A DNA stretch of 64,000 nt from a virus: the IMG/VR virus record IMGVR_UViG_3300045988_131126. One strand, given 5' to 3'. Each line of letters opens with the position of its first letter. Position 1 is the first letter of the stretch. Positions 7,433 through 56,565 of this stretch are shown here, one piece after another. A program made the translations under genes and the position numbers. The notes below the pieces were generated by a model. The model was not told the origin of the DNA. It made no database searches and saw only the letters and a list, made by a program, of their open reading frames with translations.

Positions 7433-7467
7433 TTAAGTTTCCTCCTAAAATTTATATATTGTATTGT

Positions 7468-7493
7468 AACTTACACGTTAATAATATACCATT
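7468..7493 (-). promoter_or_regulatory. conserved promoter-like element (extended -10 TGGTATATT plus downstream AACGT..AAGTT)
   Basis: The minus strand reads AATGGTATATTATTAACGTGTAAGTT, about 40-60 nt upstream of the ATG at 7432. It is near-identical to the element at 35921..35948. Confidence 0.4.
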
Positions 7494-7509
7494 AAATGTA
7501 ATTTTATTC

Positions 7510-10349: not shown

Positions 10350-10353
10350 AATG

Positions 10354-10405
10354 TCTCTACCACCTTTAATGAAGTTTATTACTCCATTGTTTTCGGTGGT
10401 AGAGA
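10354..10405 (-). promoter_or_regulatory. 11-bp stem hairpin whose 3' arm (on the mRNA) contains the SD of ORF 9177..10349
   Basis: TCTCTACCACC (10354-10364) is the exact reverse complement of GGTGGTAGAGA (10395-10405), with a 30-nt loop. On the minus strand the arm GGTGGTAGAGA sits 4 nt before the ATG and includes AAAGGTGGT. Confidence 0.5.
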
Positions 10406-11543
10406 ATTTTTATTTTGAAATTATGATATTTTTATATTCTCGATTTTATTTAAACCTTGTGATATTTTTATAATTTCTGATTTTATTTTGCGACTATGAT
10501 ATTTAAATCAAAATGATTTTATTTAATTTTCCTGATGTTTTGCCCTTTTTAATTTTATTTAATCTTTATGATATATTTCCAAAAATAATTTTATTTAACT
10601 GCTACGATATTTTATAATTTCTGATTTTTATTTCTGCTTATTGATCTTTTACCAACTGTGAATCACTTAGCATATTATGATATTTATGTGTTTCTGGTTT
10701 ATTTAACTTGTTTGATGTTTTCAGTTGTCTGATTTTACTTTGATAATATGATATTTAATCTCTCTCGGTTTATTTTTAAACTATGATGTTTTTATCTATG
10801 TGATTTTATTTGAATAATATGATATATTTCGGAGATTAATTTATTCACGAAGCATGATATTTATATTAATTTGATTTATTGTTTCTACTTGATACTTTTG
10901 AGCCTTCGATTTATTCTTGTTTTATGATATTTTCAATATGATGATTTTACTTTCATCAAATGATATTTAAGTGTAATTGGTTTATTTGTATTACATGATA
11001 TTTTCGCTCAAATGAATTATTCTTTTGGAAATGATATTTTTCCGACTGTGAATCACTTTGTAAGTATGATATTTATGTGTTTCTGGTTTATTATTAAAGA
11101 ATGATGTTTATACTTTTTTAATTTTACTTCAGTAATATGATATATATACTTTGATGGTTTATTTGTATCATACGATATTTTCACCTATTTGATTTTATTT
11201 AAATCCTATGATATATTTTATTTGTTAATTTATTTTGTCGGTATGATATTTCGAGATTTCTAATTTTTTCACTATAATTGATGATTTTATAATTTATGAA
11301 TTGCTTACATTCTCTGATATTTTTATCAATATGGGTTACTCCATAAATATGATATTTAGGAATATATGGTTTATTATTGAATCGTGATGTTTAAGCTTTT
11401 TTGATTTTACTCTAACAATGTGATATTTATACGCTTTGGGTTTAATTATGTCCACTTGATATTTTGAGGTATTTAATTTGCTTAAGGACAATGATACTTT
11501 TTCGTTTTCGGCTTATTATTACCCTACGATATATCTATTTCAA

Positions 11544-11668
11544 TAATTTATTAGCGTTAGATGATATATTAGATACGCTAATTTATTGGTGTTATATGAT
11601 ACTTTTTTAAGCATAATTTTACTTTTACGATTTGATATTTAAAATCACTTGGTTTATTAAATTCTTTT
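11544..11668 (+). repeat. segmental duplication inside the array (copy 1; copy 2 lies 282 bp downstream)
   Basis: TAATTTATTAGCGTTAGATGATATATTAGATAC and TTTTAAGCATAATTTTACTTTT recur at about 11826-11951 with an offset of 282 bp (8 units). Confidence 0.8.
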
Positions 11669-11825
11669 GATATTTTTGTCGAAATAATTTACTCACTCTT
11701 TTAGATATTTATTAATATTTGGTTTATTATTATATATTGATATTTTCACAGCGATAATTTTACTTTCTTGATATGATATTTAAAATTTTATGGTTTATTT
11801 ATCCTATATGATATTTTTTACATAT

Positions 11826-11951
11826 TAATTTATTAGCGTTAGATGATATATTAGATACATTAATTTATTAGTGGAAAGTGATCCCTTTTTAAGCATAATT
11901 TTACTTTTTCGTTCTGATATTAAAAATTTCTTGGTTTTATTAAAACTATAT
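11826..11951 (+). repeat. segmental duplication inside the array (copy 2)
   Basis: See copy 1 at 11544..11668. Confidence 0.8.
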
Positions 11952-12152
11952 AATATTTTATTGTAAATAATTTATTTGGTTTCATTGATAGCTTTATTTA
12001 TTTGATTTACTTACTCTTTTAGATATTTATTAATATTTGATTTATTATCATATTTTGATATTTTTAACATGAATAATTTTACTTTTTCATTCTGATATTT
12101 AATATCTTCTGGTTTATTTATATCATATGATATTTCTTCAAGTGTAATTTAA

Positions 12153-12183
12153 ATCAGAGATAGGTAACTTACCTATCTCTGAT
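12153..12183 (-). terminator. hairpin terminator after ORF 12193..13923, at the upstream edge of the array
   Basis: ATCAGAGATAGGTA-ACT-TACCTATCTCTGAT, 9 nt after the stop codon. Confidence 0.65.
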
Positions 12184-12192
12184 ATATTTTAT

Positions 12193-13923
12193 TTATCCAT
12201 TATATTTTGGATATTCCGCTCTCTTATCTGGTTTAAATGTAAGTTCTGTTTCAAACGGTACTTCTGGTTTGATATAGTCTACATGACCGAGTCTAGAGAT
12301 TGGGAATACCATTGGCGGAAGTTCTCCATTTTCATAAATATACATTGCTTCAAATACATGCTCTACAAAAATCTTTACTGTCCATCTCTTCGCTCTTGCT
12401 GCAATCTGAGCCGGTGGAAGCATTCCTTTAATGTAGTAGCTATACGCAATGCTATTCTTGCTATAGTTTTTAGCTCTAAGAGCTTTTGCAGCCTGGTCTT
12501 TATATTCCAGGTTTTCGTTTTTACGTGTTTCATATTCCTTCCTTTCTTTATATAACTCTCCATACATAGAACCTCTATTAGATACTTTAACGAAAGACTC
12601 TCCAATCTTCCACATAAGAACTTTCAGTTTAATATTGTATGGAGGCTTAGATAAATAAGAAATTAAGGATTTCTTAGTAATAAATCCATCGTATTTATCT
12701 TCCTCTTTATTAATAGTAGCTGATTTAATCATATTATTGATCTTTCTTCTACCATTAAGTTTTGTGTACAGGTTGCTCATGATTACATGGGTGATAATAT
12801 TCTTATCGGATAAATTGATAATATAGTCAACAAAATGATCTATACTAAACGGTTCCTCCATATTAATTACACCGAGATATGTTTCGTATGTATCCATATG
12901 AAGAATTTCATCTTCAATAGATTCATATTCTACTTCTGTATCATCAATCTCTTCTCTCTGATTAAGCTGTTTATAGGAACGTAAATCTTCATCGACAATT
13001 TTTCTAGCTAATAATATAAGCTTAGATAATTCTTTATTAGGCATTTTACTGATTACATATTCCTTGATTGCATTTTCATTATATAATAGATTTTCTGCTA
13101 AAGATTTATCAATATCAATATCAAGTTCTTCGCAAGCTGCGGCGAATCCTTTGTTTCTAATATCTCTAATAGCCATTAAATCTTTAACAATATTGGTTGC
13201 TTTCTCTTTGCCTAACCATGGATTATTATTGTCATTTAATCCTGCATATGACCAGAAGTTACCTGCAGAATTAACTCCATCTACATTAAAATATGCATAT
13301 AAGCAAGAACTGATTACTGGCCCAATACCTTTGTTTCGTTTTAACCATCTAGTTACTGGATTAGTATCAGAATATGCTTCAAGCATAGCTTTGGTATTAT
13401 CTTCAATATTTCTAAGCTGTAATAAGTTCCATTTCATAATAGATACATTGTCAGGATTATCATTATTATCGTATCCCTGATTTAATGATCTTACCTGATT
13501 CTCTGTACCAATTCTGAAATCCTGAATCTGATAATAAAAATCTACTAATGATTTGACCTCGTTATAATTAAGTGTCACTACAGTTTTCTTAAGGTCTTTA
13601 GACATTTTTCCAAGACCTATAACATTCTGCTTAAGTACACCATCTTCCATTTCCGCATCAGGCTCAAACTCTTCGATATCTTCTTCTGTCGCTTTTTCAA
13701 ACTTTAACACTTTCTTTTCTTTCTTAGACTCTTCATTCTTTTCCTCTTTATCATTCTTTTTAGTAGTTCCGGAAGTCTTTGTATTCTTTTCGTTAATAAT
13801 TTCTTCAACAATTTTCAAAGATTCTAAATCTCCCATACCTATAAAATATGACCTAGCCTCCTCTAAAGTTTTCATTCTACTTCTTGTTGATAATTCTTTT
13901 CCTCTGAATAATAATTTTGTCAT
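12193..13923 (-). CDS. helix-hairpin-helix DNA-binding protein with IS110/Transposase_20-like segment
   Basis: 576 aa. AAGGAGAAAGAG SD. Acidic/K-rich N-terminal region. WLKRNKGIGPVISSCLYAYF-x13-FWSYAGL resembles the ipGIGp..A..l.aei...F.s...l.sYaGL.P signature of the IS110-family C-terminal domain. The Ser-Gly that normally follows was not seen. Confidence 0.55.
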   Translation of the reverse strand: MTKLLFRGKELSTRSRMKTLEEARSYFIGMGDLESLKIVEEIINEKNTKTSGTTKKNDKEEKNEESKKEKKVLKFEKATEEDIEEFEPDAEMEDGVLKQNVIGLGKMSKDLKKTVVTLNYNEVKSLVDFYYQIQDFRIGTENQVRSLNQGYDNNDNPDNVSIMKWNLLQLRNIEDNTKAMLEAYSDTNPVTRWLKRNKGIGPVISSCLYAYFNVDGVNSAGNFWSYAGLNDNNNPWLGKEKATNIVKDLMAIRDIRNKGFAAACEELDIDIDKSLAENLLYNENAIKEYVISKMPNKELSKLILLARKIVDEDLRSYKQLNQREEIDDTEVEYESIEDEILHMDTYETYLGVINMEEPFSIDHFVDYIINLSDKNIITHVIMSNLYTKLNGRRKINNMIKSATINKEEDKYDGFITKKSLISYLSKPPYNIKLKVLMWKIGESFVKVSNRGSMYGELYKERKEYETRKNENLEYKDQAAKALRAKNYSKNSIAYSYYIKGMLPPAQIAARAKRWTVKIFVEHVFEAMYIYENGELPPMVFPISRLGHVDYIKPEVPFETELTFKPDKRAEYPKYNG

Positions 13924-18798: not shown

Positions 18799-21150
18799 TT
18801 AGTTAATAATATCAAATCTTGATAACTTAGCATGAGCTATAAGTTCATATTTATTAGACTCATAATATTTGATCTGCTCATACTCTTTCTTCCAGTCTTC
18901 TATAGTATACTGAAGTAAAGTTCTATTCTCAGGATCCAATGTAGATTCAAAGAATCTAGGTCCATCCATTTCACCAAGACCTTTATATCTCTCAATCTTA
19001 GATGGTTTACTAGCATCAAATGTACTCATTAATGAATATAATGATACCACTTCACCATTAAGTTTATATACTAATGAAGCATTCTTATTCATCATAGAAA
19101 TGATATTCTTAGAATCTTCAATAAGGCTATCGTTCATAAATACCGTATGAACTTTTCCGTTATAGGTTACCTCTAATACCGGAATACCCTTTTTTGTACT
19201 AGATTTTACAAATCTAAATAACTTTTTCAGATTCTTCTCGATTTCTTTTAACGGCTTATCTCTTAAAGTTATTACAGACTCTAATATCAACGGATCTATA
19301 CATAATCTATTTGCAATTCTATTGACTTCATACGTATAGTCATTATTATCATATAATAAGTGAGATAATTCATCTTTAGAAAGAACTTTTCCATTTATAT
19401 ATTCTACTTTATTAGTCTTACTAAATATACTCTGGACATATTTAATATAATCGATCTTGTACTTAAAATAATTATATTTCTTTCCAACCTGCATACCGTA
19501 TAATGGTGGTACAGCTTTATATACATATCCAGCTTTTATTAAATCTGGCATATACATCATAAAGAATCTTATAAATAATGAACTAATATGATCACCATCT
19601 GCATCAGCATCTGTTGCTAATACTATCTTTATAAATTTAACTTTTGAAACATCGAAGTTCTTTCCGTATCCAGCACCTATTAATGTAATAATACCAGATA
19701 TCTCTTCATTACTTAAGAACTTTGCTGGAGCTGTATTAAACGCATTCGGAATTTTACCTCTAATCGGAAAATATCCTTGATGTTTAGTATCTCTACTGTT
19801 TCTCATAACTCCAGCTGCAGAATCACCCTCGCATATCCATAATTCCAAATCATGTTTTAATGAAGGTTTTACATATTTAGCTGGTAAACCTTGTCCGAAT
19901 GCTGACGCCTTGAAGTTCTTAGAGATTTTGATTTTCTCCGTATCTGCTTTCATTCTAGCATCTGCAATATCTTTAAAGTACTTACAAAGCCTATTAAGAT
20001 CATTTGGATTAGCTTTGATCCATTCAGATAATCCATTATAAATTGTATCATTAACGAATTTATCCATTTCTCTTACTTCCAAGATCTCTTTGGCTTGACC
20101 ATTGAATACTGGTTCAAGATGAAAACCAGATATTACTGCTATTAATCCTGTTTTAATATCTGCATTAGTTACAGTTGTTTTGTTTCTAGGATTACTAGAC
20201 AAATATACTTTATTCATATAATTGGTAAAGAACTTACATATTCCTTTCATAAATCCATTTATATGATCTCCTTGACTTGTCGGACAAGTATTACAAAAAG
20301 ATATAATTCTTTCTCCAGATGTAGTATTATCCATATCATAAGTAAATGCTAAATCCACTTTCATAATACCAGTATCTGCTGTAATGAATACTGGAGTTAT
20401 CAGAGGATTGGTACAATTCTGATAAAAGTATGTCATAATACCGTCTTCATTTACAAGTGTTTCTGACACCTTTTCTCCATTAGCTCTAATACCATTAAAT
20501 ATAATCTTAGCTCCAATTTTATTTAATGGTAAAATAAGCTTAACCAAATTTAATACATTATCTACTGTAACATATCCATCACCAGATTTCTGAAACTCTA
20601 ATGCTTCTTCTGCAGGTTTAAATACTACAATAGTACCCTGTTTATTTGTTTTATTTTGGATTTTCTTTTCTCCTTGTTTCCAAGGCTCTCCATTATTAAA
20701 TTCTACTCTTCTTCCCTCACCCAATACATAAGAATCTACATAGAAGAATTCTGATAACGCATTTGTTACTTTTGCTCCACATCCATGTAGACCAGATGAA
20801 TACTCTCCTTTTTTCTTATTATAGTTTGAAGATGTATTCATATCCGTAAAAGCTCTAATGATAGATCCAAACGGAATACCTCTACCATTATCTTCTACAA
20901 TAATCGTTTTACTATTTTCATCATATGAAATAATTACAGTATCACACGGAGAACTGTCTTTCATTATTTCATCTAATGCGTTCTGGATAATTTCTCTGAT
21001 CATATTTAAATGACCTTTAAATCCTCTAGAACCAATCCACATACCAATATTCTGTCTGACCTGAGCTACCCAATTATCAATTGTAATAAGCTCATCACCA
21101 TAATTCTTGATATTGTCAATCATTTCTTGGGATAATTCTTTTTTAGCCAT
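18799..21150 (-). CDS. type IIA DNA topoisomerase, ATPase/Toprim subunit B (GyrB/ParE-like)
   Basis: 783 aa. GHKL ATPase motifs (IIQNALDE, EDNGRGIP, GLHGCGAKV), Toprim ELWICEGDSAAG and ATDADADGDHI, and a C-terminal RYKGLGEM motif. Confidence 0.93.
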   Translation of the reverse strand: MAKKELSQEMIDNIKNYGDELITIDNWVAQVRQNIGMWIGSRGFKGHLNMIREIIQNALDEIMKDSSPCDTVIISYDENSKTIIVEDNGRGIPFGSIIRAFTDMNTSSNYNKKKGEYSSGLHGCGAKVTNALSEFFYVDSYVLGEGRRVEFNNGEPWKQGEKKIQNKTNKQGTIVVFKPAEEALEFQKSGDGYVTVDNVLNLVKLILPLNKIGAKIIFNGIRANGEKVSETLVNEDGIMTYFYQNCTNPLITPVFITADTGIMKVDLAFTYDMDNTTSGERIISFCNTCPTSQGDHINGFMKGICKFFTNYMNKVYLSSNPRNKTTVTNADIKTGLIAVISGFHLEPVFNGQAKEILEVREMDKFVNDTIYNGLSEWIKANPNDLNRLCKYFKDIADARMKADTEKIKISKNFKASAFGQGLPAKYVKPSLKHDLELWICEGDSAAGVMRNSRDTKHQGYFPIRGKIPNAFNTAPAKFLSNEEISGIITLIGAGYGKNFDVSKVKFIKIVLATDADADGDHISSLFIRFFMMYMPDLIKAGYVYKAVPPLYGMQVGKKYNYFKYKIDYIKYVQSIFSKTNKVEYINGKVLSKDELSHLLYDNNDYTYEVNRIANRLCIDPLILESVITLRDKPLKEIEKNLKKLFRFVKSSTKKGIPVLEVTYNGKVHTVFMNDSLIEDSKNIISMMNKNASLVYKLNGEVVSLYSLMSTFDASKPSKIERYKGLGEMDGPRFFESTLDPENRTLLQYTIEDWKKEYEQIKYYESNKYELIAHAKLSRFDIIN

Positions 21151-21186
21151 TATGATTATTCCCCTTTACGTATATTTAAAAAATAA

Positions 21187-21220
21187 AAAAGTGTAGAAGA
21201 GAATTCTCTTCTACACTTTT
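21187..21220 (-). terminator. intrinsic terminator at the low-coordinate edge of the G+C-rich island
   Basis: AAAAGTGTAGAAGAGAA/TTCTCTTCTACACTTTT. On the minus strand it is followed by TTTTTTATTTTTT. Confidence 0.8.
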
Positions 21221-21606
21221 GTTATTCTCTATTTTCAGCATAAATATATGAAATTAATTTTAATTGCGTTCTGAGATTGACCGAGTGCTCCGACTGAATG
21301 ATCTCCCTTAACGATTCAACCTTGCAGGGGCTTCTATACGCGCGCTTAAGCCCGTTGTAGCAAAGTAACCGCATTTCCATATTCATTCCCAATTGCCGAA
21401 GTCTTATCCTTCAAACAACGATCGATCTCAGAACTCACATATGTTAAAATAGACAGATGTTTGGCGTATCCTAATATCAACTTAGCTCGCAGCGGACTCT
21501 TGCATATTAAACGCATCATCATGTCCGACTACGACCACTCTCGTGACTACAAGGATAATGCAGAGATAATATCTCATCTTTTCTTGTCTACTTTAATAAT
21601 ATGTTT
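21221..21606. ncRNA. candidate structured non-coding RNA (G+C-rich ORF-free island), family and strand unknown
   Basis: No ORF of 60 aa or more, and stops in all frames. I counted 31/60 G+C at 21301-21360 and 30/60 at 21481-21540, in a genome that is otherwise visibly AT-rich. Long-range pairing GTTCTGAGATTG (21268-21279) with CGATCTCAGAAC (21422-21433). Nested helices 21328-21333/21348-21353, 21353-21358/21415-21420 and 21493-21497/21523-21527. Bracketed by hairpins 21187..21220 and 21607..21636. Confidence 0.5.
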
Positions 21607-21636
21607 AGAGAGATTGTAAATTAATACAATCTCTCT
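21607..21636. terminator. hairpin after ORF 21643..22578, at the high-coordinate edge of the G+C-rich island
   Basis: AGAGAGATTGTA-AATTAA-TACAATCTCTCT. T-rich only on the plus side (TTTAAATTT). Confidence 0.55.
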
Positions 21637-21642
21637 TTAAAT

Positions 21643-22578
21643 TTATGCTTCAAGTGTTCCAGTTGCATTTACTCTTTCTACTGCTCCATTTGCAGGAACT
21701 GTTGTCTGCTGATCTGGAGTTGCTGGCTGAGCTGGTGCAGGAGCTGGCTGAGCCATCTGCTGATTCTGTGCTCCATATACCGGATAGTTCTGCTGAGGCT
21801 GTGTAGGCGCAGAATAAGTCTGCGGCATACCCATTGGCGGTACAGGCGCATTAACAATAGGAGCTGGTGCTACTCCATTAGCATAAAATGGATTTGCGTT
21901 CATATCTGGTGCTCCATATGTCATTCCACCCTGATTATTCATCATTGGTGATACAGGCTGCTGATATCCATATCCAGGATATGCTGGCTGCTGTGGCACA
22001 CCACCCATATTATACATTGGATATCCCATAGTACCACCATTTGTGATTTCTCTAAAGCTGTTGAATAATCCATTATTCTGCATATATACATCCTGTGTTG
22101 AACTTGCACTTGGAGCGAATCTGGAATAATTCTCTACAGCGATATCATAGAGTTTCGGAATCTTATCAACGAATGGTAAGATTGTGAATAACTGTCTTAC
22201 AACTGTTTCTGGAATATTTACATACATAAGTTTGCAGCATTCCATAACATTTTTAAAATCTTTTACAATCTGTTCTACTTTCTCATGAGTAAGATCATCT
22301 GGATTTAATCTTGCTCCACAGATTGTACACACCACGTCACCGGTGCCATCTTTAGTTTCTGCAATAGAGAACTTGTTTGTCCCAGGATATTTATGAGTAC
22401 AAAGACCTCTATTAATTTCCTGGCTAGTTACTTTCAGTGAGAACATAGCATCAGATTTAGTTAATTCTGCAGCTTCATCTTTTGTAAGCGGCTGAGTAAA
22501 TTTGATGTTCTGTGGCTGTACTCCATTGAAAGTCTGGCCTGCTACTGGGTTAACAAAAGTGTTGTAAAAATTAGACAT
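21643..22578 (-). CDS. hypothetical protein with Cys motif and P/Q/G/Y/M-rich low-complexity C-terminus
   Basis: ATG at 22578 (MSNFYNT...) with AAGGAGGACAAACTT SD. CTHK...CTICG pair. The last ~140 aa are Pro/Gln/Gly/Tyr/Met/Ala-rich. Confidence 0.8.
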   Translation of the reverse strand: MSNFYNTFVNPVAGQTFNGVQPQNIKFTQPLTKDEAAELTKSDAMFSLKVTSQEINRGLCTHKYPGTNKFSIAETKDGTGDVVCTICGARLNPDDLTHEKVEQIVKDFKNVMECCKLMYVNIPETVVRQLFTILPFVDKIPKLYDIAVENYSRFAPSASSTQDVYMQNNGLFNSFREITNGGTMGYPMYNMGGVPQQPAYPGYGYQQPVSPMMNNQGGMTYGAPDMNANPFYANGVAPAPIVNAPVPPMGMPQTYSAPTQPQQNYPVYGAQNQQMAQPAPAPAQPATPDQQTTVPANGAVERVNATGTLEA

Positions 22579-22689
22579 AAGTTTGTCCTCCTTAAATTTA
22601 TTATTCTTTTTTGTGAAACTACAATTATGAATTAGTTTCATCTTTTTTATTTTATTACGTCTACTACCTTTGTAGTTGGCGTAATACGT

Positions 22690-45922: not shown

Positions 45923-45972
45923 AATCTCACCCTTTCTGGTCAATTACATAATTGTTTCAGAAGGCAAAAAAT

Positions 45973-47447: not shown

Positions 47448-48992
47448 TTAGTTACTTTTACTCATTTTCTGTAACTGCACTAATTCATCTGCAGTATATA
47501 ATTTTCTTCCTAACGATACAAATGTATTAGTATTAATTATGACATCTCGCTGATGATTCAACCTATTATCAAACGATCCATCATTCCTACTAATATACAT
47601 ACTCTTCGCAGGATTAAATACTCTATTTGCTGCACGATAAAATTCATCATTTATAATATACCAAATATTCAATGTATCACCGTCAAAGTCAGCACCCAAT
47701 GATACAAGGACACCGAGAGGTAATTCCATAGTATAGGAATATGTTATACCTACACAATACATCTGTAATATAGATCCATAGTTAATGGTTGGGTTTCTAT
47801 TAATAATAATAGGAATACCTTTCCCGCTCTTATGTTTCTTGATCATACTTTCAATGATTCTTACGATTAATGGATCTGTATTTATCTTTGCTGCATACCA
47901 TCTATTGTATGCATCCTGAGAAGATAAATTATATGATTTCTTAAGAATATTGATAATGGAAGCATGTAATAATTCCACTAAAGAATTATAGCTAAGTAAT
48001 ACTTGATCGTTTCTTAATTTCGGATTAGATACAATTACACATCTACCTGTAAAGTTATATCTACCAGCAAATAAAGATCTAATTGTACCTTTCTTACCTT
48101 CACAAATTGTAACGATATTATCATATAATTTCATGAATTCTACTTGAATATCGTATAATAATTGTGCTGTAGGTTTAATCTTCTTATTAGAATTAAACTT
48201 AGATTTGGCAAAGTTTAATTCAGATACTAACTTATTAATCTTAGTATAAATAGCATTAGATTCTTCAAAATAGAATGATTCTTTATCTTCATTGAATGGT
48301 CTAAGCATTGTACTGAATACAGGAATAGATTGAGTAAATACTTTATCTCTATTCTCCATAATATTCTTATAATACTCGATTTTATTTGGAAATTTTGCTT
48401 TATAATAATCCATAATCTCATCAAACCTATTATGGAATTCTACCATACCAATTCCATAGAATGGTTGATCTTCGTTCTCGATTATATGGATATGTCCATC
48501 TTCATCAATCTGAGCATCATATTTGATAATACTATCTAATTCTGTTTTACCTATTAAGAATTCAATAGATTTAAATAGATTACAATGTATAACAAAAAAA
48601 TCGTCAGATTGGATTACTATCCAACCTGTGTATCTGGGATTTGTTTCTACATTCTCTACTTTCTGTCCGCAGAATTTACATTTTAATCCAAGATTAATCT
48701 TGGATCTTGTCATTCCACATTTACATCTAAATGTATTCTGGAATTGATCTTGATCAGAAAGATTGTTTCCATATTTAGATGAAAATATAGAATGATCATC
48801 TTTAAGATCTTTTTTGATTCCATTTGTGGGAGATACAATAAATCCGTTACCAGATCTAATGTCTTGCACTCTCTCTTCGTCGAAATTGATTCTTTCCAAT
48901 TCCGTTGTGAATATCCAGTCTGGATTATGCGGATATGAATAAGTAAAATCCAATCCAACCCTTCCATCTGGAAGTTTCTTTAGACATTTCAT
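47448..48992 (-). CDS. multisubunit RNA polymerase beta-prime, N-terminal fragment (through the catalytic NADFDGD loop)
   Basis: Zn-ribbon CKCG...CKFCG, IPVFSTMLRP (LPV.PP.LRP), GKKGTIRSLFAGRYNFTGRCVIV ([23 protein letters not shown]), INRNPTINYGSI (LNRAPTLHR), GADFDGD encoded at 47676-47696. Confidence 0.9.
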   Translation of the reverse strand: MKCLKKLPDGRVGLDFTYSYPHNPDWIFTTELERINFDEERVQDIRSGNGFIVSPTNGIKKDLKDDHSIFSSKYGNNLSDQDQFQNTFRCKCGMTRSKINLGLKCKFCGQKVENVETNPRYTGWIVIQSDDFFVIHCNLFKSIEFLIGKTELDSIIKYDAQIDEDGHIHIIENEDQPFYGIGMVEFHNRFDEIMDYYKAKFPNKIEYYKNIMENRDKVFTQSIPVFSTMLRPFNEDKESFYFEESNAIYTKINKLVSELNFAKSKFNSNKKIKPTAQLLYDIQVEFMKLYDNIVTICEGKKGTIRSLFAGRYNFTGRCVIVSNPKLRNDQVLLSYNSLVELLHASIINILKKSYNLSSQDAYNRWYAAKINTDPLIVRIIESMIKKHKSGKGIPIIINRNPTINYGSILQMYCVGITYSYTMELPLGVLVSLGADFDGDTLNIWYIINDEFYRAANRVFNPAKSMYISRNDGSFDNRLNHQRDVIINTNTFVSLGRKLYTADELVQLQKMSKSN

Positions 48993-49065
48993 AATTATCT
49001 AACTCCTTTCTGTATAACGCTATAATAATATATCGTTATTTAAGTGTTTCAGATATAGTAAAAAT

Positions 49066-49092
49066 GGACATATAGGATACCCCTATATGTCC
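49066..49092 (-). terminator. hairpin terminator after HNH-like ORF
   Basis: GGACATATAGG-ATACC-CCTATATGTCC, with ATTTTTAC following on the minus strand. Confidence 0.7.
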
Positions 49093-49102
49093 GCATATTG
49101 CT

Positions 49103-49695: not shown

Positions 49696-50940
49696 TTATT
49701 TATCCTCCCATTCTCCGAATACTGTATCAAGTGGTATTTCAGTTAACTGCTCTGTGGAATCGTGGAAAGACTTCATTGATATATTTTTCAAAGTAGAAGG
49801 AATTTTAGATTCTGTTATACCAGCATTCTTTATACCTATTCTGTATAACATATTACCTGCACACTTATTACATATACCTGTCTTAGATTCACACATAGAA
49901 GCAAATCTGAACTTGACAACTTTATTTAAATAGTTATCTACATTTTCAGATGTCAATTCTACAAGCTTGCCTTTATCGACTATATAAGAATACATCCAAA
50001 ATGATACATTCTTTTTGGTTAAATGAACTTCTACTGTATCTTTTGTATGACAATCTGATCCAGGAGCATCTAACGTGACATGCTGTAGTGTATATACAAA
50101 TAACTTTTCCCAATAACCACCATCGGCAGTTTTTCTTGCTCGTTTAAATGGACCAGCAGCTAATGAGTTAGCTATCAATGAATATTCATCTGCTTTGATT
50201 CCGTCTATATAGTTGGATGTAGCAAATTTGTATTTCTGTTTAGCATAAGGATCAGGATCTTTAATAACTCCTTTTACAACGAATATATTCTTAAAGTTAT
50301 TACCTACAGATCCTCTAGCACCAGAATTATATACATCCATAGACGGATCGTCTCCCATATAATCTAATGCATACTGTAATAATTCCTTCTCGACTTTATT
50401 ACCTACAACTTCATCCCCTCTGTCTAATGCTTCTTTATTTTTTGCTAAAAGTTCTTCTTTCTTTTTCTTAATAGCATCACTACAAGTAAGCATTTTATCA
50501 GTATAATTAGGAGCAAGTATAGTTACATAAGGCATTATCTTTTGTGTCTTATTTAAATAATGCTTTAAATAATCAAGCTGTATTTTATCTTCCAATAAAG
50601 CATAAGATAATTTCTTATTAATATCTCCAAATAAATCATCATCTACAGACTTATTTATATAATGAAATAAATCGAATAATTCATTTTCAAAAAAGAATTT
50701 ATTATATATAAATAAACCTACTGTAGTAGTAAATGAATTTTTGTTTTTCTTTTGCGGATTTGGACCGTAAGAATTTGCAGGAATAGTGACTATATCATAC
50801 GGATTATATTTTCTTTTTCCATCAAATTCTCCAAAAGTCTCCATTATAAAAGATAGAGTTATATCTTCTTCTTTTAAATCAACCAGGGCTTTTATTTCAT
50901 CTGGATTAGTGATCATTTTTGATTTACGTTTACTAGCCAT
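49696..50940 (-). CDS. multisubunit RNA polymerase beta-prime, middle fragment (region F/bridge helix to start of trigger loop)
   Basis: TTTVGLFIYN (TTVGR.I.N), NSGARGSVGN (DSGARGS), the bridge-helix-like segment NSLAAGPFKRARKTADGGYWEKLF, GSDCHT (DDCGT), and CESKTGICNKCAG (C....G.C..CYG). Confidence 0.88.
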   Translation of the reverse strand: MASKRKSKMITNPDEIKALVDLKEEDITLSFIMETFGEFDGKRKYNPYDIVTIPANSYGPNPQKKNKNSFTTTVGLFIYNKFFFENELFDLFHYINKSVDDDLFGDINKKLSYALLEDKIQLDYLKHYLNKTQKIMPYVTILAPNYTDKMLTCSDAIKKKKEELLAKNKEALDRGDEVVGNKVEKELLQYALDYMGDDPSMDVYNSGARGSVGNNFKNIFVVKGVIKDPDPYAKQKYKFATSNYIDGIKADEYSLIANSLAAGPFKRARKTADGGYWEKLFVYTLQHVTLDAPGSDCHTKDTVEVHLTKKNVSFWMYSYIVDKGKLVELTSENVDNYLNKVVKFRFASMCESKTGICNKCAGNMLYRIGIKNAGITESKIPSTLKNISMKSFHDSTEQLTEIPLDTVFGEWEDK

Positions 50941-54341: not shown

Positions 54342-54389
54342 AAGTAATTCCTCCTTGTATTTTATTCACGATTATAATATACAAAAGAA

Positions 54390-54416
54390 ATCCCATTTAC
54401 CATTGGTAAATGGGAT
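54390..54416 (-). terminator. hairpin terminator after ORF 54423..55244
   Basis: ATCCCATTTACC-ATT-GGTAAATGGGAT. Confidence 0.7.
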
Positions 54417-54422
54417 ATAATT

Positions 54423-56420: not shown

Positions 56421-56531
56421 TTATATTCTCCTTTCTTTTGTATTTTAATAGATATTCTTAATCATTCTGAATACTATCAATATTATAATATATTATTTTA
56501 ATAATTTATTATTACATTCTGAGCTATTAAG

Positions 56532-56561
56532 AACCCCATATATCTATAGATATATGGGGTT
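56532..56561 (-). terminator. hairpin terminator after ORF 56566..59124
   Basis: AACCCCATATATCTA/TAGATATATGGGGTT palindrome. Confidence 0.65.
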
Positions 56562-56565
56562 TATT

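Follow-up and report, generated by a model that had tools for sequence, protein, structure and literature searches.

A probable noncoding RNA gene with two rod-shaped domains beside the topoisomerase gene of an uncultured AR9/PBS1-like jumbo phage

Phages of the AR9/PBS1-like group transcribe their genomes with their own multisubunit polymerases. To our knowledge, very few structured noncoding RNAs (ncRNAs) have come from jumbo phages, and we know of none from this group. The phage-encoded phi29 pRNA is a two-domain molecule of ~170 nt, located at the end of a small podophage genome near the packaging genes, with a shape conserved over its sequence, and it multimerizes by loop–loop pairing through two different complementary loops. 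GOLLD and ROOL RNAs are often associated with phages or prophages. The HIV-1 dimerization initiation site (DIS) is a kissing-loop hairpin with a self-complementary G+C hexamer in its apical loop, which is GCGCGC in subtype B. OLE, ROOL, and GOLLD form RNA-only homo-oligomers, partly by kissing loops, as recently shown (PMC12286853). For AR9, the late-promoter consensus is A(-11)ACA-N6-U-A/G(+1) on the non-template strand (PMC7598289, PMC9209446).

Here we describe an intergenic island (21221-21606) in a 64,000-nt stretch of viral DNA (IMG/VR record IMGVR_UViG_3300045988_131126), the whole of which is referred to as the window. The source of the window is an uncultured jumbo phage, AR9/PBS1-like and with its genes on the minus strand. 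Judged by the topoisomerase, its closest cultured relatives are AR9 and PBS1, and the window encodes split RNA polymerase beta-like subunits. The island occupies an ORF-free gap (21151-21642) between a gyrB-like topoisomerase gene and ORF 21643-22641, surrounded by replication genes for a Dda-like helicase, a DnaB-like helicase, and both topoisomerase II subunits. An iteron-like array of ~35-nt repeats, 1.8 kb in extent (10350-12192), was noted elsewhere in the window and is a far better origin candidate than the island. The island is probably a stand-alone phage ncRNA gene on the minus strand, ~415 nt long, with a product folded into two rods that may dimerize. The features of the locus are the following.

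18799-21150, minus strand: gyrB-like topoisomerase gene, the 3' neighbor of the island, with its ATG at 21150
21174-21220, minus strand: predicted intrinsic terminator (perfect 17-bp stem at 21187-21220, then UUUUUUAUUUUUU)
21179-21594, minus strand: predicted ncRNA of about 416 nt, including terminator hairpin and U-run
21212-21223, minus strand: AACA-AAAGTG-T-A, a further AACA-N6-TA motif at the base of the terminator's 5' arm, kept in all lineages
21225-21263, minus strand: A+U-rich 3' linker, largely unpaired by prediction
21264-21438, minus strand: rod B, six nested helices (B1-B6) from the covariance model and covariation
21339-21345, minus strand: CGCGCGC in the B6 apical loop, self-complementary, candidate kissing-loop site
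21446-21594, minus strand: rod A, a long irregular hairpin from the consensus fold, closing helix AAAGUAGACA/UGUCUAUUUU
21594-21607, minus strand: promoter-like motif CT-AAACA-N6-T-A, with AACA at 21602-21605 and the predicted +1 at A21594
21607-21636, minus strand: hairpin 1, a 12-bp perfect stem 6 nt past the stop codon of ORF 21643-22641
21643-22641, minus strand: ORF, the 5' neighbor of the predicted RNA

A sequence-only reading, made without database searches, had described the island as ORF-free and G+C-rich, and both observations hold. Stop codons occur in 6/6 frames across 21151-21642, and G+C reaches 0.40-0.44 in 200-nt windows compared with about 0.28-0.32 in the surroundings. Among the 27 intergenic gaps of at least 60 nt in the window, this one ranks first in G+C (0.36 overall vs 0.18-0.31 for the other gaps) and second in length; genes are densely packed, and gaps typically measure 60-170 nt. 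Nearly every gap of at least 60 nt contains one terminal hairpin. As every gene in the window has its own trailing hairpin, the island unit occupies a gene-like slot.

None of the 4227 models of Rfam 15 matched the window at gathering threshold, and relaxing E to as much as 10 over 21000-21800 gave matches to the terminal hairpins only. The same database searched at E up to 1 in five relatives gave one chance match, outside the RNA. The earlier reading had found no match to tRNA or tmRNA signatures, in agreement with ARAGORN (0 genes in the window). The earlier reading had also seen no obvious group I intron, in agreement with the completeness of both flanking ORFs; these stay separate, adjacent genes in relatives lacking the island, and the group I P3-P8 core (RF00028) went unmatched when E was relaxed to 10. 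When the island and the 6 kb surrounding it were compared by BLASTN with 50,697 phage records, nothing matched, and the island matched no PHROG family. Indels among close relatives are 1, 2, 5, and 10 nt, i.e., not multiples of three. The largest ORF, of 58 aa, was rejected as a gene based on non-codon-like substitutions and a frameshift in lineage L008, and its homologues among 5.8 billion proteins are found only at the same locus in near-identical phages. A decayed foreign gene, raised earlier as the reading that would undo the RNA proposal, finds no backing, there being no protein homologue beyond the island's own locus. The island is noncoding. The original proposal of a structured RNA outside the classical families is supported by these searches and by the fold comparison below, and the ncRNA is most likely previously undescribed.

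An IMG/VR scan with the terminator motif returned just two contigs already known, and one with the promoter-plus-A1 pattern returned only chance A+T-rich matches; the five matches in a scan of GTDB genomes were all unrelated. A metagenome scan added four further near-identical relatives. The same scan showed an unrelated phage group with the terminator stem alone in common. The neighboring ORF 21643-22641 had no Pfam, PHROG, or PDB sequence match and no homologue in cultured phages. Its AlphaFold model is confident only at residues about 50-155, for which a CxH...CxxC zinc-ribbon-like unit plus helices is predicted, and comparison of the fold with PDB gave nothing significant. Lacking matches, this ORF gives no clue to the RNA's partner.

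Our comparative set comprises seven lineages, all of which keep a noncoding gap of 361-525 nt between the same two genes, with a neighboring protein 45-99% identical to that of the window. Relatives with a ~38% identical topoisomerase, and AR9 itself, have a gap of only 157-222 nt from which the element is absent. The element is limited to one clade and in this respect resembles an accessory gene. The promoter-like motif, rod B, and the intrinsic terminator are common to 7/7 lineages on the minus strand, and the corresponding unit in relatives is 281-439 nt long. Helix sequences differ among lineages while complementarity persists; the helices that close rods A and B change completely in sequence and still pair. 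R1, a covariance model built for rod B, matches the minus strand of the window alone (214 bits). It also detects L014 and L010 in the syntenic position (E = 2e-5 and 8e-5, respectively), in both cases on the plus strand of the locus only (for L010, 25 bits on one strand vs 5 on the other). Neither R1 nor a second model, R2, built including L010 and L014, recovered rod B of L015, L016, L017, or L058, so homology in these four lineages rests on position and architecture.

The sequence-only reading had named absence of covariation in homologs as evidence against itself; the helices do covary across lineages. Alignment A5 of rod B was fitted by the model to the structure and is therefore biased toward pairing; in it, 97% of cells are paired and 20 pairs are doubly changed. 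Shuffles gave 4.7 ± 1.7 such pairs (0/500), and the slid controls gave 1-5. L015 and L016 differ by 22 doubly changed pairs. Covariation is weak in the close clade alone (3 doubly changed pairs vs 1.9), where variable columns make up 18% of paired and 33% of unpaired positions; stem substitutions there preserve pairing in 13 of 16 cases (0.47 expected, P = 0.005) and in 14 of 20 (0.42 expected, P = 0.01), more often than expected. In the reading favored below, rod shape, rather than sequence, is under selection. The strand, formerly left ambiguous, can be assigned as minus from comparative evidence. Sense minimum free energy (MFE) is below antisense by 12-43 kcal/mol in 9/9 sequences, and G-U pairs account for about 11% of paired cells on the minus strand (87/796), which would be A-C mismatches on the opposite strand. 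Folding of single sequences gives a modest signal, with z-scores of -1 to -5 and, for 21221-21606, an MFE z of -2.9 on the minus strand and -2.0 on the plus strand; it is the comparative evidence that makes the structure convincing.

All helices named from the sequence exist, two of them displaced by one position. The long-range pairing is present with ATCTCAGAAC at 21425-21434 rather than 21424-21433, and the GAGAT-AAT-ATCTC hairpin lies at 21563-21575 rather than 21562-21574. The long-range pairing reaches 19 nt at 84% complementarity and corresponds to helix B1 (21425-21436 paired with 21266-21277), and GGGCUU/AAGCCC (21328-21333 paired with 21348-21353) is helix B6, closing a 14-nt apical loop. 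CGTTGT/ACAACG, also proposed as a helix, is present as sequence and falls outside the consensus structure. Rod B has the conserved internal-loop boxes AUAAG, GGAAAU, and GGAGCAC. Rod A has a small side hairpin, GAGAUAUUAUCUC, and a tip UGCGU-UUAAU-AUGCA; the sequence of its closing helix is different in each lineage, and in L010 the rod is reduced to a 50-nt hairpin. A junction core joining several helices is absent from the consensus structure. The 3' linker and the terminator are the most conserved parts: three close relatives compared with the window have zero substitutions in the linker (divergence 0.000 vs 0.06-0.20 in the rods), and the linker is still partly alignable in L010. Divergence in the rods is roughly as fast as at four-fold degenerate sites.

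Both hairpins that had been said to bracket the island, 21187-21220 (17 bp) and 21607-21636 (12 bp), are real and perfect. As boundaries they fare differently, the latter lying outside the unit and the former belonging inside it. Hairpin 21607-21636 is the terminal hairpin of ORF 21643-22641, upstream of the predicted RNA start, and its stem covaries among lineages (AGAGAGATTGTA, TAGTAGAGTTGTA, TAGTAGTGTAGTA, and TAGTAAGTAGGTA). Hairpin 21187-21220 was correctly recognized as a minus-strand terminator, since on that strand a T-run comes after its perfect 17-bp palindrome. The terminator is conserved at 80-95% identity in 7/7 lineages and lies 23 nt ahead of the ribosome-binding site and ATG (21150) of the topoisomerase gene. 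At the other end, CTAAACA and TA are invariant in 7/7 lineages while the six intervening bases vary, such that the AR9-type late-promoter pattern is present throughout and the variable bases fall exactly at N6. In 6/7 lineages, pairing in rod A begins at the predicted +1 (21594), MFE folds begun there placing nucleotide 1 in the closing helix. We infer that CTAAACA-N6-TA acts as a promoter of the AR9 non-virion RNA polymerase type. The bare AACA-N6-T[AG] motif is not significantly enriched in intergenic DNA (11 occurrences vs 7.9 ± 2.7 in composition-matched shuffles), so the promoter call derives from conservation and position only. If the assignment is true, AR9-type promoter grammar would extend to uncultured gut phages. 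It is possible that the second motif, at 21212-21223, is a nested promoter for the topoisomerase gene, a call made tentative by its overlap with the conserved terminator stem. The unit thus has a clear terminator of its own and a putative promoter of its own marked by the conserved AR9-type motif, from which its transcription and exact ends are predicted.

Each lineage has a palindrome at the rod B tip (GCGCGC, CCCGGG, GAGCGCTC, GCGCGCGC, TTATAA, and TTTATAAA), so that palindromy survives sequence change. Palindromic hexamers made of G+C only are found solely at this site in the 64-kb window, and nowhere else in L010, L014, or L016. We speculate that the RNA could form a homodimer through loop–loop pairing of GCGCGC. 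The palindrome makes loop-dependent dimerization testable and ties the locus to the RNA-only assemblies of large bacterial and phage RNAs.

In the reading we favor, a stand-alone RNA gene, transcription would start at A21594 under the CTAAACA-N6-TA element, whose type is served in AR9 by a uracil-dependent non-virion RNA polymerase, and would end at the intrinsic terminator (21187-21220) and U-run. The RNA would fold as two long irregular hairpin rods, A and B. The apical loop of rod B would expose GCGCGC for pairing with its counterpart in another molecule, and a kissing-loop homodimer would result. Dimerization and action in trans are read from the sequence; the RNA may serve as a shaped protein scaffold or decoy, rather than as antisense, and this is the weakest step. 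More ambitious, and in our estimate improbable, is a new class of jumbo-phage RNA with the island RNA as its founding member. Such RNAs, made by the phage's own polymerase, would work as homodimers or higher assemblies held together by a G+C palindromic kissing loop, and their shape would decoy or scaffold some protein of the host or of the phage itself, e.g., a defense sensor or a polymerase.

The same promoter could instead produce a ~440-nt structured 5' untranslated region controlling topoisomerase expression in cis, with hairpin 21187-21220 as a regulated attenuator or with the rods rendering the polymerase termination-resistant. The element always lies directly upstream of the topoisomerase gene, its highest conservation is in the 3' linker and terminator, and the 23 nt between terminator and ribosome-binding site are too short for a conventional promoter. 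However, similar hairpins trail almost every gene in the window, so that read-through or nested promoters must be general there and not peculiar to the island, and the second AACA-N6-TA motif in the terminator foot could serve the topoisomerase gene. The terminator is also a 17-bp perfect palindrome for which no conserved alternative pairing was found; the only antiterminator candidate, in which GUAUAGAAG from the rod B tip would pair with the terminator's 3' arm, was rejected as limited to the close clade, the pairing being absent from L010 and L014. Moreover, AR9 and more distant relatives express the gene without the element, and riboswitch, T-box, and leader families gave no Rfam match. 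We regard a cis-acting leader as rather unlikely.

Two further explanations do without a functional RNA, and we consider both very improbable. The long imperfect inverted repeats and G+C palindrome could work at the DNA level, in double-stranded or extruded form; the region might, for instance, be an origin of replication, bind a dimeric protein, or signal recombination or packaging within the replication module. Replication genes do surround the island, and palindromes such as GCGCGC and CCCGGG are typical of sites for dimeric DNA-binding proteins, but the pairing is strongly one-stranded (G-U pairs, sense vs antisense MFE, and R1 strand scores). Nor does the locus look like an origin, being the most G+C-rich gap with no A+T-rich unwinding region and without a strand switch or skew inflection, while the 10350-12192 array is better suited to that role. 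Alternatively, the island could be nonfunctional, either spacer or what is left of a lost gene, with hairpins that persist only through short divergence or the ready folding of A+T-rich phage DNA. The near-synonymous divergence of the rods, the weak covariation within the close clade, and the modest z-scores are what this would predict. Against it, 360-525 nt have been kept in a dense genome though the neighboring protein is down to 45% identity; two rods, promoter-like motif, terminator, and tip palindrome recur on unrelated primary sequence; compensatory changes exceed controls; and no protein homologue exists among those searched. That an RNA gene of ~400 nt would persist while proteins diverged to 45% identity makes its function worth finding.

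The stand-alone RNA gene can be compared with several described systems. As in AR9 late units, A(-11)ACA-N6-T-A(+1) stands immediately upstream and is conserved at its consensus positions only, its use here being predicted, and split RNA polymerase beta-like genes are present in the window phage as well. AR9 differs in having no RNA gene at the corresponding position and an annotated early promoter for its topoisomerase gene. 6S RNA, a decoy of RNA polymerase, is similarly rod-like, a few hundred nucleotides long, and conserved in shape over sequence, but it consists of one rod rather than two, no conserved central bubble is definable in the island RNA, and the 6S, 6S-Flavo, and Bacteroidales-1 models did not match the island. 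The rod B internal loop was also inspected by eye for mimicry, in the manner of 6S RNA, of the AR9 template-strand promoter (YA-N6-UGUU); this reading was rejected, as the spacing is wrong and L008 and L011 do not retain the segment.

The phi29 pRNA is likewise a two-domain phage RNA with conserved shape and without conserved sequence, its loop–loop pairing having a proposed counterpart here. The island RNA differs from it in size (~415 nt), in its position in the replication module, in its self-complementary loop, and in having no Rfam match. With the HIV-1 DIS it shares a self-complementary G+C hexamer in an apical loop, which in both cases varies among lineages with the palindrome retained. 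There is no homology between the two, one being a phage ncRNA and the other part of a retroviral genome; the DIS loop is 9 nt rather than 14 nt, and the dimer proposed here comes from sequence alone. GOLLD, ROOL, and OLE, whose Rfam models did not match the island, are like the island RNA structured ncRNAs without assigned function. The island RNA is smaller, with two simple rods and no multi-way junctions, and is so far confined to one clade of gut jumbo phages. If the new-class reading were true, it would be a small rod-shaped counterpart of the RNA-only assemblies formed by OLE, ROOL, and GOLLD.

The gap between the gyrB-like topoisomerase gene and the next ORF upstream (21151-21642) contains stop codons in all six frames, in agreement with the sequence-only reading, which had described an ORF-free, G+C-rich island here. 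G+C content peaks at 0.40-0.44 against about 0.30 nearby, and the overall value of 0.36 is the highest among the 27 intergenic gaps of at least 60 nt in the window (remaining gaps 0.18-0.31), of which the island is the second longest. When the single sequence is folded, its advantage over shuffles is moderate (minus-strand z = -2.9, plus-strand z = -2.0). All helices listed in that reading exist, although two were numbered one base off (ATCTCAGAAC lies at 21425-21434 and GAGAT-AAT-ATCTC at 21563-21575), and both perfect hairpins said to flank the island are real, with a T-run on the minus strand after that at 21187-21220 only.

Features of the island and its surroundings in the window
18799-21150, minus strand, gyrB-like topoisomerase II large-subunit gene (Pfam DNA_gyraseB, Toprim, HATPase_c)
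21187-21220, minus strand, terminator hairpin
21264-21438, minus strand, rod B (helices B1-B6), predicted hairpin domain
21446-21594, minus strand, rod A, predicted hairpin domain
21607-21636, hairpin 1
21643-22641, minus strand, ORF upstream of the island, no family
47448-48992 and 49696-50940, split RNA polymerase beta-like subunits, jumbo-phage type
995-1026, 2620-2663, 5160-5203, 9137-9172, 14272-14305, 18766-18794, 41227-41264, 51519-51552 and 60219-60250, examples of intergenic hairpins

All genes neighboring the island are on the minus strand, and the surrounding replication module comprises topoisomerase II subunits A and B, a Dda-like helicase, and a DnaB-like helicase. The phage has no nucleotide match to deposited phages; by topoisomerase protein its nearest cultured relatives are Bacillus AR9/PBS1 and Staphylococcus and Listeria jumbo phages (~30% identity), and most of the related metagenomic contigs (148-284 kb) derive from the human or pig gut. 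An invariant CTHK...CxIC zinc-ribbon-like motif marks the upstream ORF, which also has a predicted helical core (pLDDT 70-88, residues about 50-155 of the 311-residue form) and a tail of ~150 disordered residues with abundant Q, P, G, Y, and M, and is without family, fold match, or cultured-phage homologue.

Contigs sharing the gene order were reached through homologues of the upstream protein (P0001-P0022, 28-99% identity), and IMG/VR and a metagenome scan supplied further near-identical island copies. A long noncoding gap of 361-525 nt precedes the topoisomerase gene in the seven lineages that form the comparative sample, namely the window clade (eight different sequences with 87-96% identity) and contigs L010, L014, L015, L016, L017, and L058. 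In contigs L003-L005 (topoisomerase ~38% identical) the same two genes are just 157 nt apart, and AR9 has 222 nt at the corresponding position, with an annotated early promoter there, indicating that the element is clade-specific, like an accessory gene. Between lineages, BLASTN aligns the gap at its two ends only, the core being alignable within the window clade only, and homology of the rods of four lineages was judged from position and architecture.

Both ends of the element carry conserved signals. Hairpin 1 lies directly 3' of the upstream stop codon in all seven lineages, and its stem covaries. A promoter-like motif on the minus strand, also in all seven, reads CTAAACA, six variable bases, TA; its conserved bases are exactly the positions of the AR9 late-promoter consensus for the non-virion RNA polymerase, 5'-A(-11)ACA-N6-U-A/G(+1), and its variable bases exactly the N6 (PMC7598289, PMC9209446). 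The predicted +1 is 21594, and in folds begun there, six of the seven lineages pair nucleotide 1 in the helix that closes the first domain. Rod A closing helices in six lineages are AAAGUAGACA/UGUCUAUUUU, AAAUAAACCA/UGGUUUGUUU, AAAUGAAUG/CAUUCAUUU, AAAUGGAU/AUCCAUUU, AAAUGAGAU/AUCUUAUUU, and AAAUAAGAUUA/UGAUCUUAUUU; AAAAUAAACC/GGUUUAUUUU is possible in L010. An intrinsic terminator conserved in all seven lineages stands just ahead of the topoisomerase ribosome-binding site. The RNA predicted in the window measures 416 nt (from 21594 to about 21179), and its counterparts in relatives measure 281-439 nt. The bare AACA-N6-T[AG] motif is not significantly enriched on the coding strand of minus-strand gaps (11 vs 7.9 +/- 2.7 in shuffles); its strand bias in gaps (11 vs 2) and a recurrent extended form in the window, C(T/A)GAAACA, are suggestive only as promoter support.

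The extended form with N6-TA occurs upstream of genes at 45945, 49037, and 55278 (minus strand) and also at 10681 and 11070, preceding the RNA polymerase beta-like gene 47448-48992 among others, and these sites may be AR9-type late promoters. A second recurrent box, TATATTAT(T/A)A, in gaps 7433-7509, 48993-49102, 54342-54422, and 56421-56565, resembles the annotated AR9 early promoter TTTATATTAT. Another AACA-N6-TA (AACA-AAAGTG-TA, 21212-21223, minus strand), kept in all relatives, overlaps the 5' foot of the terminator; a transcript from its +1 at 21212 would retain only a 7-bp hairpin remnant, and the motif could be a route for topoisomerase expression directly behind a strong terminator. 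The terminator stem GTGTAGAAGAGG...CCTCTTCTACA is the only part of the element shared with an unrelated group of large phages (L032, L041, L043, L049, L051, L053, and L055; contigs of up to 260 kb), where it lies between convergent genes and not beside a topoisomerase gene.

Between these ends the predicted RNA comprises rod A (111-177 nt in six lineages, the L010 MFE fold being a 51-nt hairpin only), rod B (90-199 nt, with a lineage-specific closing helix in all seven), and an A+U-rich linker 3' of rod B, again in all seven. Of the helices in the sequence-only reading, B1, B6, the rod A stem CGGAC/GUCCG, and the GAGAU hairpin persist in the consensus, and CGTTGT/ACAACG does not. A covariance model of rod B built from the window clade only, R1, finds rod B in the syntenic place in L014 (27 bits, E = 2e-5) and L010 (25 bits, E = 8e-5; reverse strand 5 bits), in both on one strand only. 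In the nine-sequence rod B alignment that results, fitted by R1 and hence biased towards pairing, 97% of cells are paired and 20 of 52 pairs show both-sided changes; shuffles give 4.7 +/- 1.7 such pairs (0/500), and sliding the partners by one to three columns leaves 1-5. Read from the sequences, helix B1 is GUUCUGAGAU/AUCUCAGAAC in the window and GUUCUAAGAU/AUCUUAGAAC in L010, and B3 is CUUCGGC/GUCGGAG in the window, CUCUGGU/AUUGGAG in L010, and CUCUGAA/UUCGGAG in L014, with an invariant box GCAC after B3 in all three. Pairwise, L015 and L016 have 22 of 81 predicted pairs doubly changed and none broken. The window clade taken by itself gives a weak signal (3 doubly changed pairs vs 1.9). Even there, fewer paired than unpaired columns vary (18% vs 33%), and stem substitutions kept pairing more often than under random placement, in 13/16 cases vs 0.47 (P = 0.005) and in 14/20 vs 0.42 (P = 0.01).

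The strand, previously left ambiguous, is minus: the sense fold surpasses the antisense fold by 12-43 kcal/mol in each of the nine sequences tested, G-U makes up ~11% of paired cells on that strand (our tally from the per-pair table), and R1 matches are one-stranded. In L015 (2398-2836) and L016 (3383-3803) the rod A apical loop box ACCACGAT is identical and rod B has conserved boxes ACGACUAUUAAAA and AUGAGAAUAGAAU; the window clade shows none of the three.

The apical loop of rod B, AAGCGCGCGUAUAG (helix GGGCUU/AAGCCC), contains the overlapping GCGCGC and CGCGCG, the sole G+C-only palindromic hexamers in the 64-kb window, and this palindrome explains much of the G+C island. A tip palindrome is present in all seven lineages with differing sequence: GCGCGC in the window clade and L014, GCGCGCGC in L016, GAGCGCTC in L015, CCCGGG in L010, TTATAA in L017, and TTTATAAA in L058. 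In the fetched contigs of L010, L014, and L016, as in the window, no other G+C-only palindromic hexamers occur; L017 and L058 provide weak evidence by themselves, since A+T palindromes such as theirs are frequent in A+T-rich DNA. Self-complementarity preserved in a loop whose sequence changes is the signature expected of a kissing contact between identical molecules, which we predict here.

Compared with the window, the rods of related contigs L001, L008, and L011 differ by 6%, 13-16%, and 15-20%, and topoisomerase four-fold degenerate sites by 7%, 12%, and 22%, respectively. The 3' linker has no substitutions in these comparisons, and the terminator, promoter region, and hairpin 1 are identical in alignment with L001/L002. 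Diverging rods with invariant ends indicate that the rods are selected for shape and the two ends for sequence, which argues against a classical antisense RNA whose seed lies within the rods. As for the invariant linker, it might serve as a seed or as a promoter region for the next gene.

Rfam 15 gave no match in the whole window at gathering thresholds, noise on the terminal hairpins only at relaxed thresholds, and nothing on five relatives; ARAGORN found no tRNA or tmRNA. The possibility of a decayed foreign gene, raised in the sequence-only reading, does not apply, and a protein remnant is ruled out: indels of 1, 2, 5, and 10 nt separate island copies of close relatives, substitutions in the longest ORF (58 aa) lack a codon pattern, and that ORF has no PHROG family and no homologue among 5.8 billion proteins except at the same locus in near-identical phages. 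The predicted island RNA is outside every described family, and we rate it a new family of phage-encoded structured ncRNA.

The sequences show the shared architecture, the covariation, the strand, the conservation of the end signals, and the tip palindrome; from these we infer, with moderate confidence, that the island is a stand-alone ncRNA gene with the exact ends predicted here. The phage's own polymerase would transcribe the RNA from the AR9-type motif, the intrinsic terminator would end it, and the product would fold into two rods, homodimerise through the rod B tip, and probably act in trans as a shaped scaffold or decoy. Its position favours a leader or attenuator acting in cis on the topoisomerase gene, a reading that we consider unlikely. 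Nearly all window intergenic gaps of at least 60 nt hold one perfect 12-20-bp palindromic hairpin, with a T-run behind some and none behind others, so that genes appear to be punctuated individually, and the island, with its own terminal hairpin and U-run, occupies a gene-like slot. The nested AACA-N6-TA (+1 at 21212) in the terminator foot also speaks against a leader, and a conserved antiterminator was not found.

A DNA-level element is highly improbable given the one-strand specificity and a much better origin candidate at 10350-12192. This 1.84-kb stretch (G+C 0.21, no ORF of at least 70 aa) holds ~50 degenerate tandem units of ~35 nt with TTTTATTT and ATGATATTT boxes spaced at multiples of ~35 nt, adjoins a transposase-like ORF (12193-13923, phrog_4285), and has two identical promoter-like sites, AAACCAGAAACACATAAATATCATA, with predicted +1 at 10681 and 11070 (minus strand); possible identities of the stretch are an iteron array or a replication origin. 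We give equally little credence to a nonfunctional spacer, which retention and covariation across deep lineages contradict.

Among known systems, retroviral dimerisation hairpins, which share a palindromic G+C loop, would be closest in mechanism to the predicted dimer. Phi29 pRNA is likewise a phage RNA of two domains with conserved shape and drifting sequence, and its loop-loop multimerisation resembles the contact proposed for rod B. A putative assembly of the island RNA would also recall OLE, ROOL, and GOLLD, recently described as RNA-only assemblies (PMC12286853). From all of these the island RNA differs in sequence, size, fold, and genomic context.
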